A program made the position numbers and the translations under genes. The notes under the pieces were generated by a model that saw only the letters and a program-made list of their open reading frames with translations, searched no databases and was not told the origin of the DNA. Below, piece after piece: positions 20,918 through 26,316 of a stretch of DNA of 56,624 nucleotides (position 1 is its first letter; each line of letters begins with the position of its first letter). The stretch is from an uncultured Oscillospiraceae bacterium. GTDB taxonomy: Bacteria; Bacillota; Clostridia; Oscillospirales; Oscillospiraceae. The DNA lies in NCBI GenBank assembly GCA_910577805.1, contig CAJTOE010000001.1:1-56624 (forward strand), in the 5' to 3' direction.

Positions 20918-21133
20918 TTATGGGAGTTCTGCCTGCTCATAGGCCCAGCTCCATTGGACCAGCTCCTGGTAGGTCCCCTGTAGAAAGGTGTAGATTACGT
21001 ACAGTGCATCGGAATAGCAGTTGGGCGGGCTTTCCTCCGAAAGCATCAGCTCTACCTGCTCTAAGGTTCGCAGTCCGCTTTTCAGGTCGCATTGGATTTG
21101 CTGGAGTTGGCTTAACATGTTTTCTTGCTGCAT
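20918..21133 (-). CDS. Small hypothetical protein (71 aa)
   Basis: Strong RBS GAGGAGG 8 nt before the ATG; helical-looking sequence. Confidence 0.65.
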   Translation of the reverse strand: MQQENMLSQLQQIQCDLKSGLRTLEQVELMLSEESPPNCYSDALYVIYTFLQGTYQELVQWSWAYEQAELP

Positions 21134-21160
21134 AACTAGAAACCTCCTCGATTTTTCCGC

Positions 21161-21188
21161 TTGATTTTCCCCGGAGGTATGATATAAT
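21161..21188 (+). promoter_or_regulatory. SigA-type promoter driving a putative antisense RNA
   Basis: TTGATT-16 nt-TATAAT with extended TG; no + strand ORF follows before the terminator. Confidence 0.6.
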
Positions 21189-21194
21189 TGAATT

Positions 21195-21297
21195 TATCAA
21201 GCCTCCTTGGCCAAACCTCACGGGTTCAGCCTCACAGGGTTTGTGTTTAAGAGTTTTGGATGTGACTTGTCAGGGCCGCCAAAACTCTTATTTTTTT
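21195..21297 (+). ncRNA. Putative ~100-nt antisense small RNA
   Basis: Lies between the promoter above and the hairpin taagagttttgg...ccaaaactctta followed by ttttttt. Confidence 0.45.
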
Positions 21298-21461
21298 AGG
21301 TCCGGCTCCAGCCGCTTAATCCCGCGCCGTATCGCTTCCATTGTGCTGACTTTCTCTTGTTCCGTGTATTGTTCCAGTATCTTCTTGCTCGCTTCATCTA
21401 CCCGAACAGAAAGTTTATAGGGCTTCGGATTATCGGTAGGCCGTCCGGTCCGTGGGGACAT
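21288..21461 (-). CDS. CopG/ribbon-helix-helix DNA-binding protein (57 aa)
   Basis: Manual translation MSPRTGRPTDNPKPYKLSVRVDEASKKILEQYTEQEKVSTMEAIRRGIKRLEPDLKK; RBS gaggtg; below the ORF-track length cutoff. Confidence 0.85.
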   Translation of the reverse strand: MSPRTGRPTDNPKPYKLSVRVDEASKKILEQYTEQEKVSTMEAIRRGIKRLEPDLKK

Positions 21462-21489
21462 TTTAACACCTCACTTTCGACCTTCATAA

Positions 21490-21518
21490 ACTATATAATT
21501 AAAACTCCCAAAAGTCAA
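21490..21518 (-). promoter_or_regulatory. SigA-type promoter of the RHH gene
   Basis: TTGACT-17 nt-TATAGT on the minus strand. Confidence 0.7.
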
Positions 21519-21562
21519 GTGCTTTTTTCTGCGATTTTTTGTAATTCGGGAAATTGTGCAGA

Positions 21563-21795
21563 CCTTCGGCTTCACCCTCATCCGTCTGGCCTCCGGCCAG
21601 CCACCTTCCCCCACTAGGGGGAAGGCTTTTCGGTGCGGCTATCGAGACTACTGTGCAGTCTAGCGAGTGCCAGTATTTGAGGCCTTCCCCCTCACGGGGG
21701 AAGGCCGACTCCCCCTAACAGGGGGAGATGGCCGCAGGCCAGAGGGGGTAGGGAGGCACGCGAAGCGTGACGGATGAGGGTGAAAAACCCGAAGG
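21563..21795. repeat. REP/MITE-like palindromic element with perfect 16-bp terminal inverted repeats
   Basis: ttcaccctcatccgtc (21571-21586) and gacggatgagggtgaa (21769-21784); internal hairpins ccttcccc...ggggaagg twice and ctccccc...gggggag. Confidence 0.85.
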
Positions 21796-21817
21796 ACTCT
21801 CATACACAGCCTTCAAA

Positions 21818-21857
21818 GAAAAACAGTGTGGGCATAAATAGTACCCACACTGTTTTC
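21818..21857 (-). terminator. Terminator after the type III toxin gene
   Basis: aaaacagtgtggg-loop-cccacactgtttt. Confidence 0.75.
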
Positions 21858-22329
21858 ATGTAATGTCCAAAATATCATGGAAATATGGCAGAGTTGAAAA
21901 CTCATACTTTCTTTTATATTCTCTGCTATGAATAACATTGATATTTTTCTTATGAGAAATGTACATAGATATATAAGAATGAATGCTTTCTACAATTTTT
22001 TCAATATTTATCATCATCATCCTATATTCATCTGCATCCACTATTGCATTGGAAGAATTTATGTAAGACGCGTTTTTGATTAATACGACCTTTTTGTAAT
22101 CCAGCCCGGACCGTGTTCTTCTTGATCTGTTCGTTTTTGAAAATAAAAATGCCTCATTATGCTTTATGGATGAACGGAACGGTATACATATCAAATATCC
22201 ATCATGTGAATGAATTAAAAGACACGTATAGGGCCTGCCTGACTTTCTTAAAATTTCCGGGTATCTGCACTCTGGATAAGCCCTATAAAACGCCTCAGAT
22301 AAAGAACAAATATCTACATCATAACTCAT
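21856..22329 (-). CDS. tenpN: Type III toxin-antitoxin toxin, TenpN-like endoribonuclease
   Basis: RPY...IPFRSSIKH...SGLDYKKVVLI...YEFSTLPYFH pattern recalled for the TenpN family; AT-rich; preceded by tandem repeats and a hairpin. Confidence 0.8.
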   Translation of the reverse strand: MSYDVDICSLSEAFYRAYPECRYPEILRKSGRPYTCLLIHSHDGYLICIPFRSSIKHNEAFLFSKTNRSRRTRSGLDYKKVVLIKNASYINSSNAIVDADEYRMMMINIEKIVESIHSYISMYISHKKNINVIHSREYKRKYEFSTLPYFHDILDIT

Positions 22330-22355
22330 GTTTCGACACTCCAGTGAAATGGATT

Positions 22356-22381
22356 GGGGTTAGTCTTTACTGACTAACCCC
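22356..22381 (-). terminator. Hairpin between the antitoxin repeats and the toxin gene
   Basis: ggggttagtc-tttact-gactaacccc, a perfect 10-bp stem; poor U-tract in the sense direction. Confidence 0.7.
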
Positions 22382-22391
22382 TTTCAACACT

Positions 22392-22517
22392 TCGCTCGGC
22401 CAATTTTTATTTTACCGACGAGTCAGAGCCGTCACTCGTCTCCATCGCTCGGCCAGTTTTTATTTTACCGACGAGTCAGAGCCGTCACTCGTCTCCTTTA
22501 CGAAGTATCATCCATCT
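22392..22517 (-). ncRNA. tenpI: Type III antitoxin RNA (TenpI-like), two 53-nt tandem repeats
   Basis: Repeats at 22392-22444 and 22445-22497 with 2 differences; each has a GACGAGU/ACUCGUC stem and an A-rich tract. Confidence 0.8.
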
Positions 22518-22523
22518 ATCTAT

Positions 22524-22552
22524 AGTATATGTACGAAACAACAATCTGTCAA
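22524..22552 (-). promoter_or_regulatory. SigA promoter of the tenpIN operon
   Basis: TTGACA-17 nt-TATACT. Confidence 0.85.
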
Positions 22553-22627
22553 CAAAAATTTCAAACGGCACCAGCCAAAAAAAGCCGGCCTCTCCGCTTC
22601 ACAGAGAGACCGGCATCCTTATTTTAT

Positions 22628-23224
22628 TCACACAGCGGGAAAAATCCGTCCGGACACGTCGGAGCGAACCAGCTGCACCTCAGGCAGGCAGCGCACCAGG
22701 GCTTCCGGCTCCTCCACATGGTAGAAAATCAAGCCGTTGAGCTCGTCTGTGTACTCCCGCACCCCAGACATGGCGTAGACGCGGCTCTTATACACAGGCA
22801 CCTCCGCCGCTTTGCCGAAGTACAGGTTCGCGCAAGTCCCGTCCCAGTCCTTCGCCACAGCCTTCAGGTCCTCCAGGGGCATCGCCATCACATCGTCCTT
22901 CACAACGGCGATCGCCCGGCGGTCGGTCACGGCGTAAACGGTCTCCTTCTCCAGGGTCCGCTTATCCAGCAGGGGGCGTACCGACAGCATCGTGGGCATA
23001 AATATCATCACAAGCGCGGCCAGCAGCATATCGCCGGTCAGCGTATGATTCAAATAGTAAGGGGCCAGGAAATAGCCCACCAGCAAAACGACACAGGCAG
23101 ACATCAGCCAGGTCAGCACCACCGCCGAACGATAGGTGCTGTGCATCAGCCGGAACTGTGCGGGCCGGCCGCTCCACTTCACCTGCTCCCCCTCCTGCAA
23201 AGCTGCCTGCAAACGCTTCTCCAT
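22628..23224 (-). CDS. Hypothetical membrane protein (2 TM plus a PH-like domain)
   Basis: LQEGEQVKWSGRP, two hydrophobic helices, YAVTDRRAI. Confidence 0.75.
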   Translation of the reverse strand: MEKRLQAALQEGEQVKWSGRPAQFRLMHSTYRSAVVLTWLMSACVVLLVGYFLAPYYLNHTLTGDMLLAALVMIFMPTMLSVRPLLDKRTLEKETVYAVTDRRAIAVVKDDVMAMPLEDLKAVAKDWDGTCANLYFGKAAEVPVYKSRVYAMSGVREYTDELNGLIFYHVEEPEALVRCLPEVQLVRSDVSGRIFPAV

Positions 23225-23413
23225 AAAAATCACGCTCCATTTCTTCATTCTTCCCGATCCATTGCCTTGGACCAATACACATTATAACGCTTCGGGTATA
23301 AATTGGGTATAAATGAATCGAGGCCGTCTGTTAAGAATCTGTAAACAGAAAATTCCTTGCATTTTTTACCGCAATATTGTATGATAATCCAAGAAAATCA
23401 GGAGGTTTTATAC

Positions 23414-24112
23414 ATGAATCAGGAAGAAACTTCCCGCACCCGCCTGCTGCTGGGGGATGCGGCCTTAACCCGGCTGGCACAGGCCAGAGTGGCGCTGTTC
23501 GGCGTGGGCGGCGTAGGCGGGCACTGTGCTGAGGCGCTGGTCCGGGCGGGCATAGGCGCGCTGGACGTATATGATAACGACGTAGTCTCCCCCTCCAATC
23601 TGAACCGGCAGCTCGTGGCTCTCCACTCCACCCTGGGCCAGTACAAGGCGGAGGTCATGGCCCGCCGGGCCGCTGACATCAACCCGGATTGCCAGGTACG
23701 GGCTGTCCCCATGTTCTACCTGCCCGAAAACGCGGACCAGGTCGATCTGAGCCAGTACGACTACGTGATCGACGCCATCGACACCGTATCCGCCAAGCTG
23801 GAGCTGGCCCAGCGGTGCTATCGCTTACACGTTCCGCTGATCAGCTGCATGGGTTCGGGGAACAAGCTGGACCCCTCGGCGTTCGTGGTGACGGACCTCT
23901 ATAAAACCCAGGGCTGTCCTCTGGCGCGGGTATTGCGCAAGGAGCTGCGCCGCCGGGGCGTCCCCAAGCTGATGGTAGTCTTTTCCCCGGAGGAGCCTGC
24001 GTCCACCGGGGAACGCACGCCGGGGTCTGTGCCCTTTGTCCCCGGCGCGGCGGGGCTGGTGCTGGCGGGCGCGGTGGTCCGGGCGCTGGCCGCTGGCCGG
24101 ACGGAGGAATGA
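23414..24112 (+). CDS. tcdA: ThiF-family tRNA threonylcarbamoyladenosine dehydratase
   Basis: GVGGVGG, SNLNRQ, DAIDTV, MGSGNKLDP, CPLARVLRKEL. Confidence 0.9.
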   Translation: MNQEETSRTRLLLGDAALTRLAQARVALFGVGGVGGHCAEALVRAGIGALDVYDNDVVSPSNLNRQLVALHSTLGQYKAEVMARRAADINPDCQVRAVPMFYLPENADQVDLSQYDYVIDAIDTVSAKLELAQRCYRLHVPLISCMGSGNKLDPSAFVVTDLYKTQGCPLARVLRKELRRRGVPKLMVVFSPEEPASTGERTPGSVPFVPGAAGLVLAGAVVRALAAGRTEE

Positions 24113-24210
24113 GGGGGAACCCCCCGGTCCCCGCAAAAAGATTGTTAAAAAATTTGACAAGTCCCACAAAATCCGCTACACTATTCCCAATGGTGGAAAG
24201 GAGGTCCCAC

Positions 24211-24861
24211 ATGAAACGAAATGCCAAAGTATCTACCGCCGTGATCCGCCGTCTGCCCCGGTATTACCGGCACCTGTTCGAGCTTCAGCAAAAAGGCGTG
24301 GAACGCATTTCCTCCAGCGCGCTGGGCAAATCCATGGGGCTGACCGCCTCCCAAATCCGCCAGGACCTGTTCTGCTTCGGCGGCTTCGGCCAGCAGGGCT
24401 ACGGCTATAAGGTCGAAAGCCTCCGGGAGGAGATCGGCGGCATTCTGGGGGTCAACCAGGGCCACACCGTCGTGGTCCTGGGGGCCGGCAACCTGGGCTG
24501 CGCCCTGATCGAAAACTTCAAATTCAACGCCAACGGCTTTCAGCTTCTGTCCGCCTTCGACGTGAACCCGGAGCTGGTCGGCACAATGATTTCCGGCATC
24601 CCCGTGGTCCACGCGGACCAGCTGGAGGACTACCTGCGCCGCACACCGGTCAGCGTGGGACTGCTGGCCGTCCCCATGTCGGCGGCCCAGGGGATGGCCG
24701 ACCGGCTGGTGCGCTGCGGCGTCAGCGGCATCTGGAATTTTACCAACTACGAAATCAGCGCCCCGGAGCATGTAGTGGTGGAGAGCGTCCATTTCTCCGA
24801 CAGCCTTCTGGCCCTGAGCTACATGATTACCCAGCGGGAAAGGAGCGGCGATGAAACTTAA
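24211..24861 (+). CDS. rex: Redox-sensing repressor Rex
   Basis: RRLPRYYR, ISSSAL, QIRQDL, GQQGYGY, GAGNLG, GIWNF. Confidence 0.96.
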   Translation: MKRNAKVSTAVIRRLPRYYRHLFELQQKGVERISSSALGKSMGLTASQIRQDLFCFGGFGQQGYGYKVESLREEIGGILGVNQGHTVVVLGAGNLGCALIENFKFNANGFQLLSAFDVNPELVGTMISGIPVVHADQLEDYLRRTPVSVGLLAVPMSAAQGMADRLVRCGVSGIWNFTNYEISAPEHVVVESVHFSDSLLALSYMITQRERSGDET

Positions 24862-25966
24862 ACCTGTTCTTGCGGCGGGGGTGTGCGGGGCGCTGGTCCT
24901 GTGTGCCGCCGCCTTAGGCGAGGGGGACAGCCTGATCTCCCGCAGCGACCTGGAAGCCTCCTTCATCCCCCAGACCGTCCAGCAGGGGGAGAGCATCCAG
25001 GAAAACCGCCTCCTGGAGGCCTATGACCAGGCCCTCCAGCGGGCACAGCAGATCGCCGGGAGCGCCACCCCCGCCGGCTCCTACAGCGCGGACCTGTCCC
25101 CCCGCTCCCTGAGCGCCGGAAGCGCCGTTACCCTGGAGACCGGGGGCTGTTTCCTGCTGGCCTCCGGGGCCGGGACCGTGCGCCATGACGGCGCGGTGGT
25201 GGACGCTACCACCGGGACAGAAGTCCTCTCCGGCGGGAGCCTCACGGCGGGACACCGCTATCTGGTGGCCGAGGACACCCGTGCGGAATTTACCCTCAGC
25301 GCCGCTTCCTCCGCCGGTTTCAGCGGCCCCTACCGTCTGGACCTGAACAGCGGCAATCCAGGCACCGATCCCCAGCCCCCCGCCGGGCCGCTCCCCTTCA
25401 CCGATGTGCGGGAAAAGGACTGGTTCTACAGCGCCGTGGCCTACGTCTATCAAAACGGCCTGTTCTCCGGCATGGACGACACGACCTTCGGCCCCAACCA
25501 GAAAATGGACCGCTCCATGCTGGTGACGGTGCTCTACCGCCTGGCCGGTTCCCCGGCGGACCAGATGTCCAGCGCTCAGGCCTCCTTCACCGATGTGCGG
25601 GACAAGGACTGGTTCGCCCCCTACGTGCGCTGGGCCGCCAGCCAGGACATCACCGCCGGTACGGGAGACGGCCTGTTCTCCCCCGGCCAGCCCGTGACCC
25701 GGCAGCAGGTGATGGTGCTGCTCTACAACTTCGGCACCCGGTATCTGGGCCTGAACCTCTACCAGCGGGCGGACCTGTCCTCGTATGCGGACGTATCCCG
25801 CGTGGACAACTGGGGGCTGGAGGCCATGCGGTGGGCGGTGGGCGCCGGTATCCTGTCCAGCACCACCCCCGGCGAGCTGGTCTTGGAGCCGCAGTCCTCC
25901 GCGACCCGCGCCCAGGTGGCGGTGATGCTGCAAAACTTCGCGGAAAATTTTTTGACACAGCCCTGA
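24851..25966 (+). CDS. S-layer homology (SLH) domain protein
   Basis: Signal peptide; C-terminal SLH repeats (FTDVREKDWF, FTDVRDKDWF, ATRAQVAVML). Confidence 0.9.
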   Translation: MKLKPVLAAGVCGALVLCAAALGEGDSLISRSDLEASFIPQTVQQGESIQENRLLEAYDQALQRAQQIAGSATPAGSYSADLSPRSLSAGSAVTLETGGCFLLASGAGTVRHDGAVVDATTGTEVLSGGSLTAGHRYLVAEDTRAEFTLSAASSAGFSGPYRLDLNSGNPGTDPQPPAGPLPFTDVREKDWFYSAVAYVYQNGLFSGMDDTTFGPNQKMDRSMLVTVLYRLAGSPADQMSSAQASFTDVRDKDWFAPYVRWAASQDITAGTGDGLFSPGQPVTRQQVMVLLYNFGTRYLGLNLYQRADLSSYADVSRVDNWGLEAMRWAVGAGILSSTTPGELVLEPQSSATRAQVAVMLQNFAENFLTQP

Positions 25967-26049
25967 ACCCCCGCCGCCCAGCCGCATAAGATGAAATTGA
26001 GAACGGCGATCAGGCCGGCTCGAATCTTATTTGTAGGAGGTACTTCATC

Positions 26050-26250
26050 ATGGGGTGCTGCAATAACAATAGCTGGGGTGGCAATGGCTGGGGCGGCAAC
26101 GGCTCTTTGTGGATCATTATCCTGATTATCATTCTGTTCTCCTGCGGCGGCTGCGGCAACGGCGGCGGCAATCTCTGCGGCTGCGGGAACAACTGTGGCT
26201 GCGGCTGCGGCAATAACTGCGGCGGGAACAACTGCGGCTGCGGCTGCTAA
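26050..26250 (+). CDS. Small Cys/Gly/Asn-rich protein, probably spore-associated
   Basis: RBS aggagg; WIIILIIILF core; CGCGNN repeats; upstream CATAAGAT resembles a sigE/sigK -10. Confidence 0.8.
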   Translation: MGCCNNNSWGGNGWGGNGSLWIIILIIILFSCGGCGNGGGNLCGCGNNCGCGCGNNCGGNNCGCGC

Positions 26251-26281
26251 AAGCGACCCTCAAGGATCGCCGTGCATAGGA

Positions 26282-26316
26282 AGGAGCCTCCGGCCTGCCG
26301 GAGGCTCCTGTTTATT
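26282..26316 (+). terminator. Intrinsic terminator
   Basis: aggagcctccgg-loop-ccggaggctcct followed by gtttattt. Confidence 0.75.

Follow-up and report, generated by a model that had tools for sequence, protein, structure and literature searches.

The window analysed here is a stretch of 56,624 nt of contig CAJTOE010000001.1 (assembly GCA_910577805.1) from an uncultured Oscillospiraceae bacterium. On its reverse strand we found a compact cassette with a promoter, two 53-nt repeats, a 10-bp hairpin, an AT-rich ORF of 157 aa and a terminator. All these parts had been named in the original prediction, where the locus was described as a TenpIN-like toxin-antitoxin (TA) cassette of type III, and all of them are present. 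The features of the region are as follows (window coordinates).

22524..22552, reverse strand: promoter of the sigma70/sigmaA type, with the -35 box TTGACA at 22552-22547, a 17-nt spacer and the -10 box TATACT at 22529-22524
22500..22517, reverse strand: predicted tenpI leader
22445..22497, reverse strand: tenpI repeat 1 (53 nt), with predicted stems S1 (22493-22487/22476-22470) and S2 (22484-22480/22454-22450) and the A-rich loop 22469-22455
22392..22444, reverse strand: tenpI repeat 2 (53 nt), with predicted stems S1 (22440-22434/22423-22417) and S2 (22431-22427/22401-22397) and the A-rich loop 22416-22402
22385..22395, reverse strand: trailer strand of the predicted closing helix, containing the third A-W-G junction motif, a candidate cut site
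22356..22381, reverse strand: 10-bp inter-gene hairpin, at the position of the type III inter-gene terminator and without a U-tract
22339..22342, reverse strand: Shine-Dalgarno-like GGAG, 9 nt 5' of the ATG
21856..22329, reverse strand: tenpN, coding for the 157-aa TenpN endoribonuclease toxin, with R52 and S53 as the predicted active site
21810..21860, reverse strand: intrinsic terminator 3' of tenpN, with perfect 13-bp arms and a U-tract
22584..22614, reverse strand: terminator of the upstream gene (ORF 22628-23275), which insulates the cassette and lies outside the TA unit

The promoter agrees with the consensus at 11 of 12 positions and ranked first among the nine promoter-like sites detected in a scan of 21000-23500, where shuffled sequences yielded 3.2 ± 1.9 such sites of any grade. 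The tenpI transcript is predicted to start near 22517 (-). At the other end of the cassette, the hairpin at 21860-21810 had a folding z-score of -6.1 and was missed by a simple terminator scan. The terminator that had been claimed for this locus does exist and is strong, but it lies mostly outside the span originally given for the cassette, which began at 21856. The ORF upstream of the cassette (22628-23275, -) is membrane-protein-like, with a weak match to NCBIfam PuhB (30 bits compared to the cut-off of 110).

The tenpN ORF has a GC content of 32.5% and a GC3 of 0.32, compared to 59.1% GC for the genome and to GC3 values of 0.79-0.82 for the four neighbouring genes tested. Only 0.03% of 10,991 genomic segments of the ORF's size were equally AT-rich.

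Several other features were observed in the neighbourhood. Just beyond the tenpN terminator, at 21571-21784, there is a cluster of palindromes, presumably REP-like, that had 369 blastn matches on 94 contigs of the genome. A 56-aa ORF (21461-21294, -) resembles ribbon-helix-helix proteins (Pfam RHH_1, 18.5 bits, below the cut-off of 20.5). It is accompanied by a 12-bp inverted repeat (21248-21290) and then by a 71-aa ORF without a family (21133-20918, -), with a promoter-like site at 21161-21188 on the strand opposite to the latter. This pair of ORFs (20918-21520) recurs on contigs C6 and C19 and in the nearest relative of the genome, G032, and may be an antisense-controlled module. Also, a 66-aa peptide rich in Cys, Gly and Asn, with a hydrophobic core, is encoded at 26050-26250 and is present in G032 too.

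The protein encoded by tenpN scored 163.2 bits on the NCBIfam model NF047358 (TenpIN toxin), well above the cut-off of 90 and along the whole profile (1-141 of 141), so the profile comparison proposed with the original prediction came out in favour of TenpN. For comparison, the characterised TenpN of E. coli scores 131 on the same model. Pfam, which does contain a ToxN model, and PADLOC gave no family at an E-value of 1 or better, and searches of PDB sequences (phmmer and profile) gave none either.

An AlphaFold model of the protein was built from 48 homologues, out of 120 listed among the 162 found, and had a pLDDT of 91. In a structural search against 48,161 solved chains, ToxN-Bt topped the ranking (Z 12.7, rmsd 3.0, 141 aligned residues), followed by AbiQ (Z 11.8), ToxN-Ec (10.6) and CptN (9.9). 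These four are all type III toxins, and MazF came next with Z of 6.5 or less. Foldseek also ranked ToxN first, with an E-value of 0.011, and returned nothing at 0.001 or better.

The cryo-EM model of TenpIN was not found in the PDB sequence and structure sets searched. As a reference we retrieved one protein common to plasmids of E. coli, Salmonella, Klebsiella and Shigella; since the residue numbers used in the cryo-EM paper fit its C-terminal 153 residues, we took it as the characterised TenpN. Its alignment with the protein of our locus has 45 identities in 146 columns, and the E. coli residues R36, Y38, G47, P53, R55, S56, H60, G75, D77 and K80 are identical in both. R55 and S56, the residues whose replacement by alanine was reported to abolish toxicity (PMC13682666), align to R52 and S53. 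Among 48 aligned homologues, R52 is invariant and S53 is conserved in at least 90%. The third proposed active-site residue of the E. coli protein, H57, which was left unmutated there, corresponds to S54, and this serine is present in at least 90% of the 48 homologues.

The curated family model, the ToxN/AbiQ/CptN-type fold and the activity residues R52/S53 all support the TenpIN-like identity proposed for the ORF. By analogy with the E. coli protein, we infer that this TenpN would be a toxic RNase. The identical protein was found on 193 contigs; most of the listed members of its 90% cluster have 157 aa, and some are short. As to the E. coli gene itself (L113:331-957, NZ_AP022485.1, WP_223149424.1), we observed that its annotation gives 208 aa and places the start codon within the tenpI RNA, so that 55 additional codons cross the antitoxin and the terminator. 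PMC12283969 describes a TenpN of E. coli with 208 aa and an 'N-terminal extension', which may have the same mis-called start.

Upstream of tenpN, the direct repeat has a length of 52 nt, an identity of 98% and a period of 53 (22445-22496 and 22392-22443, -), and no further copies were found by blastn elsewhere in the genome. Out of 111 loci, 103 matched TenpN by tblastn. The same type of repeat precedes tenpN in 88 of these 103 loci: in two copies in 82 loci, in one copy in five and in three copies in one. The other 15 include four loci cut by the end of the contig or locus, L060, in which unrelated sequence has taken the place of the antitoxin region, L025, in which a single variant repeat was missed by the search pattern, and nine distant loci (30-38% identity) with different upstream sequences.

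Our model of the tenpI repeat is composed of S1 (7 bp), 2 nt, S2 (5 bp), 3 nt, S1', a 15-nt A-rich loop and S2'. In 40 distinct repeats, the pseudoknot pairing held in 98.3% of 480 cells, compared to 15-53% for slid controls. Double-sided changes were observed in four of the seven S1 pairs and in one of the five S2 pairs, the latter being a change from U-A to C-G in six repeats, among them both repeats of our locus. The number of double-sided cells was 41, compared to 13.0 ± 2.4 in shuffles (none of 500 reached 41); these sequences are related, and the covarying columns were left free by the search pattern, which fixed several other columns and made them invariant by selection. There was no excess of extra pair types over shuffles (499 of 500 reached the count). 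The covariation supports folding of the tenpI repeat into a pseudoknot of the H type whose A-rich loop is long, the layout published for tenpI and cptI (PMC13682666, PMC12283969). The published repeats of TenpIN systems have 39-57 nt in 1.9-3.0 copies (PMC3401426, Table 2), and two copies of 53 nt fall within this range. Folding of single repeats gave no signal (z of -0.4 and -0.6), which is to be expected of a pseudoknot, since the folding program cannot form one. A role of the A-rich stretch as the cut site, as in ToxI, was considered and ruled out since the S2 pairing across the stretch covaries.

Rfam had no family at the gathering score and no weak match up to an E-value of 10 over the repeats. 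The expectation that the RNA would be missed by standard annotation is therefore borne out for Rfam, but NCBI annotation would name the protein TenpIN and so the locus is not hidden. Separately, loci L045 and L090 have one chimeric repeat each, with the front of repeat 1, the back of repeat 2 and a mismatched S1, produced either by recombination or by assembly collapse.

The enterobacterial-plasmid TenpIN, for which a 2:2 ring was seen by cryo-EM (PMC13682666), has in common with our locus the NF047358 family, two repeats with a long S1, a shorter S2 and a long A-rich loop, and the order promoter-repeats-hairpin-toxin. On the other hand, the repeats of our locus, near-identical to each other (one difference), are unrelated in sequence to the enterobacterial ones, and loop 1 has 2 nt plus 3 unpaired nt before S1' in our model, compared to the 1-nt L1 of the enterobacterial system. 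The founding member of the family, the P. luminescens TenpIN (PMC3401426, PMC5377504), comes from a Gram-negative host, where toxicity, neutralisation by the complete array and abortion of phages are reported for it; its likeness to our locus is one of family name and operon criteria.

The CptIN system of Eubacterium rectale (PDB 4RMO) shares the fold (Z 9.9, with 128 residues superposed at an rmsd of 3.3) as well as the long pseudoknot, the A-rich loop and the 2:2 ring (PMC13682666). It differs in its toxin family and in its repeats of 40-48 nt (PMC3401426); with 9% identity in the structural alignment, and with CptN not returned by the PDB sequence searches, our protein was not found to belong to the CptN sequence family. 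The closest solved folds are those of ToxIN/AbiQ (PDB 4ATO, 4GLK, 7D8O and 2XD0; Z 10.6-12.7), which share the logic of a self-processing RNase. Here too the sequence-family membership was not found (9-11% identity to solved ToxN/AbiQ, nothing in Pfam or PADLOC), and these systems differ in their shorter repeats, 3:3 rings and A-rich cut sites (PMC5086642); in our locus the A-rich stretch is the predicted pseudoknot loop, and the junction motif is A-W-G.

We consider it very probable that the locus is an intact, horizontally gained TenpIN type III TA operon with self-processing, a 2:2 ring, a part in abortive infection and a leader-trailer helix. The steps of the mechanism are transferred from the E. 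coli TenpIN, the P. luminescens TenpIN and ToxIN. The single promoter would produce a tenpI RNA of ~160 nt, with transcription continuing into tenpN. TenpN, an endoribonuclease of the MazF/ToxN fold with R52/S53 as the predicted active site, would cut the junctions and release 53-nt H-type pseudoknots, which would bind TenpN head to tail in a ring of two RNAs and two proteins with the active sites blocked. In the subclade of our locus, the leader would pair 3' of the last repeat, so that repeat 1 with its 5' flank and repeat 2 with its 3' end come to lie side by side, as in the geometry of the 2:2 ring. Upon failure of the antitoxin supply, e.g. when a phage shuts off host transcription, TenpN would be freed and would cut host and phage RNA, and the resulting cell arrest would amount to abortive infection. 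By analogy with the characterised systems, the TA mechanism at this locus is highly probable; neutralisation and the 2:2 stoichiometry would be expected on the same grounds. The anti-phage role we only moderately favour, because the plating of six coliphages was not reduced by two Firmicutes cptIN loci (PMC3401426).

Among public sequencing runs, those with the stretch were mostly labelled mouse gut metagenome. Within the genus, 11 of 112 genomes matched NF047358 (among the 56 near-complete ones, 10 did); the family had matches in 5 of 401 genomes and the class in 13 of 399, with this genome included in each count. The hpf gene, the ThiF gene and the upstream gene were near none of the other TenpN loci. 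G032 (96% at hpf) retains both flanks, one of them inverted, and had no match to the cassette in its 84% complete genome. The comparison of hpf and ThiF as an empty site was workable for G032 only, as the two genes are not neighbours in the other listed genomes of the genus. The inverted block corresponds to 22642-26316 (G032:C17), which places the TenpIN cassette and the palindrome cluster at an inversion breakpoint.

In the toxin tree, the locus grouped with six metagenomic loci (support 99/98), apart from the clade of the genus (100/100). Joining it with the other TenpNs of the genus was not rejected by the AU test (p 0.13), in which the group that was held together included L010 and L111, both nested in the genus clade. 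We find it likely, as originally suggested, that the cassette was gained horizontally, given its AT-rich composition, its patchy spread and the missing match in G032, with the tree being suggestive only. No match was found in an annotated phage collection. Two viral contigs of IMG/VR, L110 and L111, encode related TenpN proteins (50% and 46%); L111, which falls within the genus clade, has a full array whose closing helix measures 11 bp. Such viral contigs are a possible route of TenpN spread. Some relatives are damaged (L010/L012, L011/L013, L025, L029 and L060): tenpN is split by ~1.2 kb in G016 (L010/L012, G016:C39:16736-18361), it is in pieces in G037 and G900, and it has stops in G679, whereas in L060 the damage concerns the antitoxin region.

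The same TA biochemistry could also belong to a selfish addiction or stress element that gives its host no protection from phages. The patchy spread, the AT-rich sequence and the differing contexts within the genus fit such an element, as do the negative result with the Firmicutes cptIN loci and the remark of the authors of the same paper that the natural role may be one other than abortive infection (PMC3401426). However, the P. luminescens TenpIN is reported to abort three of six phages tested (PMC3401426, Table 3) as well as phage M1 in Pectobacterium (PMC5377504), and no replicon or mobile-element gene was recognised beside the cassette in the five flanking ORFs scanned. We regard the selfish element as a somewhat unlikely explanation and retain the phage-defensive TenpIN operon as the preferred one.

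Folding of the whole region paired the leader around the repeat array. When both S1 stems were forced and the other parts of the pseudoknots were blocked, a closing helix was formed by 22509-22500 and 22395-22386, and 22516-22510 could pair with 22354-22348, so that a three-way junction forms around the 10-bp hairpin; the pair probabilities in this constrained fold were 0.89-0.99 for the 5' part of the leader. The helix was then assessed in loci with at least two repeats, for which 43 of the 45 distinct sets of leader and trailer were used, L035 and L065 being dropped. It had at least 6 bp in 37 of the 43 loci. In 200 unanchored shuffles of the leaders, such a length was reached in 13.9 loci (maximum 21); in 500 leader shuffles in which the helix had to include the A-A-G that follows the last repeat, the number was 3.4 (maximum 11). 

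It could be argued that, in a genuine TenpIN locus, this complementarity is a functionless by-product of inherited conserved sequence with a chance extension. The helix core CUUC/GAAG is mostly invariant and barely covaries among these related loci, and, the core being common, the own trailer ranked only 8th (median) among the 43 trailers. In 13 of 43 loci the internal linker is an equally good or better partner for the leader, such a leader is missing from L001, the helix is weak in five more of the 43, and by eye it was not evident in the E. coli tenpI or in distant clostridial loci. Against this reading, the leader core is no remnant of a repeat but has the reverse-complement sequence of the junction, and it occupies a fixed place, with its anchor 9-14 nt 5' of S1. 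Moreover, helices of 10-12 bp with differing sequences are present in our locus, in L003/L004/L010, L006/L008/L014, L007 and L111, which the toxin tree places in two different regions, and in a 12 x 12 cross-pairing table the own trailer was the best partner for seven loci (L002, L003, L007, L073, L111, L030 and L043). We regard a by-product as an unlikely origin of the helix.

No description of a leader-trailer helix was found in the literature searched, which included the accessible parts of PMC13682666 and PMC12283969, with subscription papers largely outside the search. The table of 722 proteins and the RNA figures of PMC12283969 may cover this clade or depict the helix, and the same holds for PMC8040213, which has three candidate RNAs lying upstream of genes of the ToxN type. 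As an analogy only, the leader of CRISPR type II-A arrays is reported to pair with an extra repeat-derived element of the array and to shield it from processing (PMC12080349). That system is unrelated, and its paired repeat adjoins the leader, whereas in our locus the paired element is the junction farthest from the leader.

The junctions of the array carry an A-x-G pattern. Before repeat 1, the A was found in 34 and the G in 34 of 43 loci; at the internal junction the counts were 42 and 43 of 44, and at the junction that follows the final repeat they were 42 and 40 of 43. The conservation of A-W-G after the last repeat, where the motif has no stem 3' of it, is what would be expected of a processing site, and we regard this motif as a candidate cut site of TenpN. 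Its third copy is buried by the closing helix. A mapped TenpN cut site was not found in the accessible parts of the TenpIN papers PMC13682666 and PMC12283969; the known type III cut sites are A-rich (AA/AU, A/AAAA and A/AAA; PMC5086642). In distant tenpI of other sequence types (L018-L021, L023, L024, L114 and L116), we saw by eye an A/G-A/G-A-U motif at all junctions, including the last one; examples are AAGAU, GAUGAU and GAUUAU.

Most likely, the closing helix pre-organises or paces the processing, since it unites two RNA ends whose meeting point in the ring would be the second active site. Another role, in which the ribosome-binding site is made accessible by the leader and hidden again upon cutting, found no support, as the site was predicted to be mostly paired in all three folded states.

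The inter-gene hairpin (22381-22356, -) is a perfect 10-bp stem, with a z-score of -4.2 for the region 22330-22392. The sequence 3' of it, AATCCATT, has no U-tract, with 3 T in 8 nt. At least 5 T in 8 nt follow the hairpin in 42 of 44 loci (L065 dropped), and the two exceptions are our locus and L086, where the lower count was a parsing error (5 T by eye). The E. coli TenpIN likewise has a U-tract terminator, unlike our locus. Since three other runs had no listed difference at the hairpin, the loss of the U-tract is not an assembly error. The segment in its place is the partner of the first nucleotides of the leader, an observation limited to one lineage. The promoter 5' of the repeats and the short palindrome between repeats and toxin, both of them operon criteria of PMC3401426, are in place. 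The layout described in the prediction implies that the palindrome works as an intrinsic terminator, which is doubtful in this copy; as regards control of the toxin level, this counts against the preferred reading.

Contigs of RNA libraries from three studies covered most of the cassette, and one of them, 591 nt long (21843-22433), began in repeat 2 and spanned the hairpin and all of the toxin gene. These contigs are no proof of transcription, as DNA may be present and neither levels nor ends of RNA can be read from contigs. In the comparison of contig coverage, made for 4 of 24 listed runs, the RNA contigs of two studies ended within the downstream terminator (at 21843 and 21847), while the DNA run and the third RNA run continued; these ends give a weak hint of downstream termination. 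The depth of the repeats compared to that of the toxin gene in the RNA contigs had no clear excess over the DNA run.

Could the loss of the U-tract be a sign of decay, permitted by a weakened activity or expression of the toxin? Our locus is the sole true case of such a loss among the 44 loci, tenpN is broken in the relatives G016, G037, G900 and G679, and there are the short members of the 90% cluster. The copy itself has a full ORF, the mapped key residues except H57, a near-consensus promoter and both repeats intact; in addition, four other runs had no frameshift, and the length of 157 aa prevails among the listed cluster members. These properties argue for an intact operon and make decay quite improbable. 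The idea that the repeats are not an antitoxin at all, being CRISPR-like repeats, DNA operator sites or a riboswitch, agrees with the negative Rfam search and is nevertheless extremely improbable, given that there are no spacers, that the repeats are tied to tenpN in 88 of 103 loci, that the covariation fits an RNA pseudoknot and that the layout is the one described for tenpI (PMC13682666, PMC12283969).

The locus is an added member of the known TenpIN family and, as such, is ordinary; over 700 TenpN sequences have been catalogued (PMC12283969). What it adds to a known system is modest and open to testing: a leader-trailer helix that is conserved, a candidate motif for the cut and the loss of the U-tract. 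Still, TenpIN is the least studied type III family, and the functionally tested members in the accessible parts of PMC13682666 and PMC12283969 are those of Photorhabdus and of enterobacterial plasmids.

For this clostridial branch of TenpIN we tentatively propose, with some doubt, a layer of control by RNA that would be new to the family, in which pairing of the leader with the last junction would make a ring-shaped template for the 2:2 complex and hide the third A-W-G cut site. In our locus the leader would also replace the U-tract, through the three-way junction, so that the toxin dose would be set by RNA folding and processing and not by termination. The clade supplies a covariation-backed model of tenpI, missing from Rfam, and a cut motif that can be tested. 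The leader-trailer helix could explain how a two-repeat precursor is assembled into a two-RNA ring, or the pace of its processing, and the copy without the U-tract is a natural test of the need for an inter-gene terminator.
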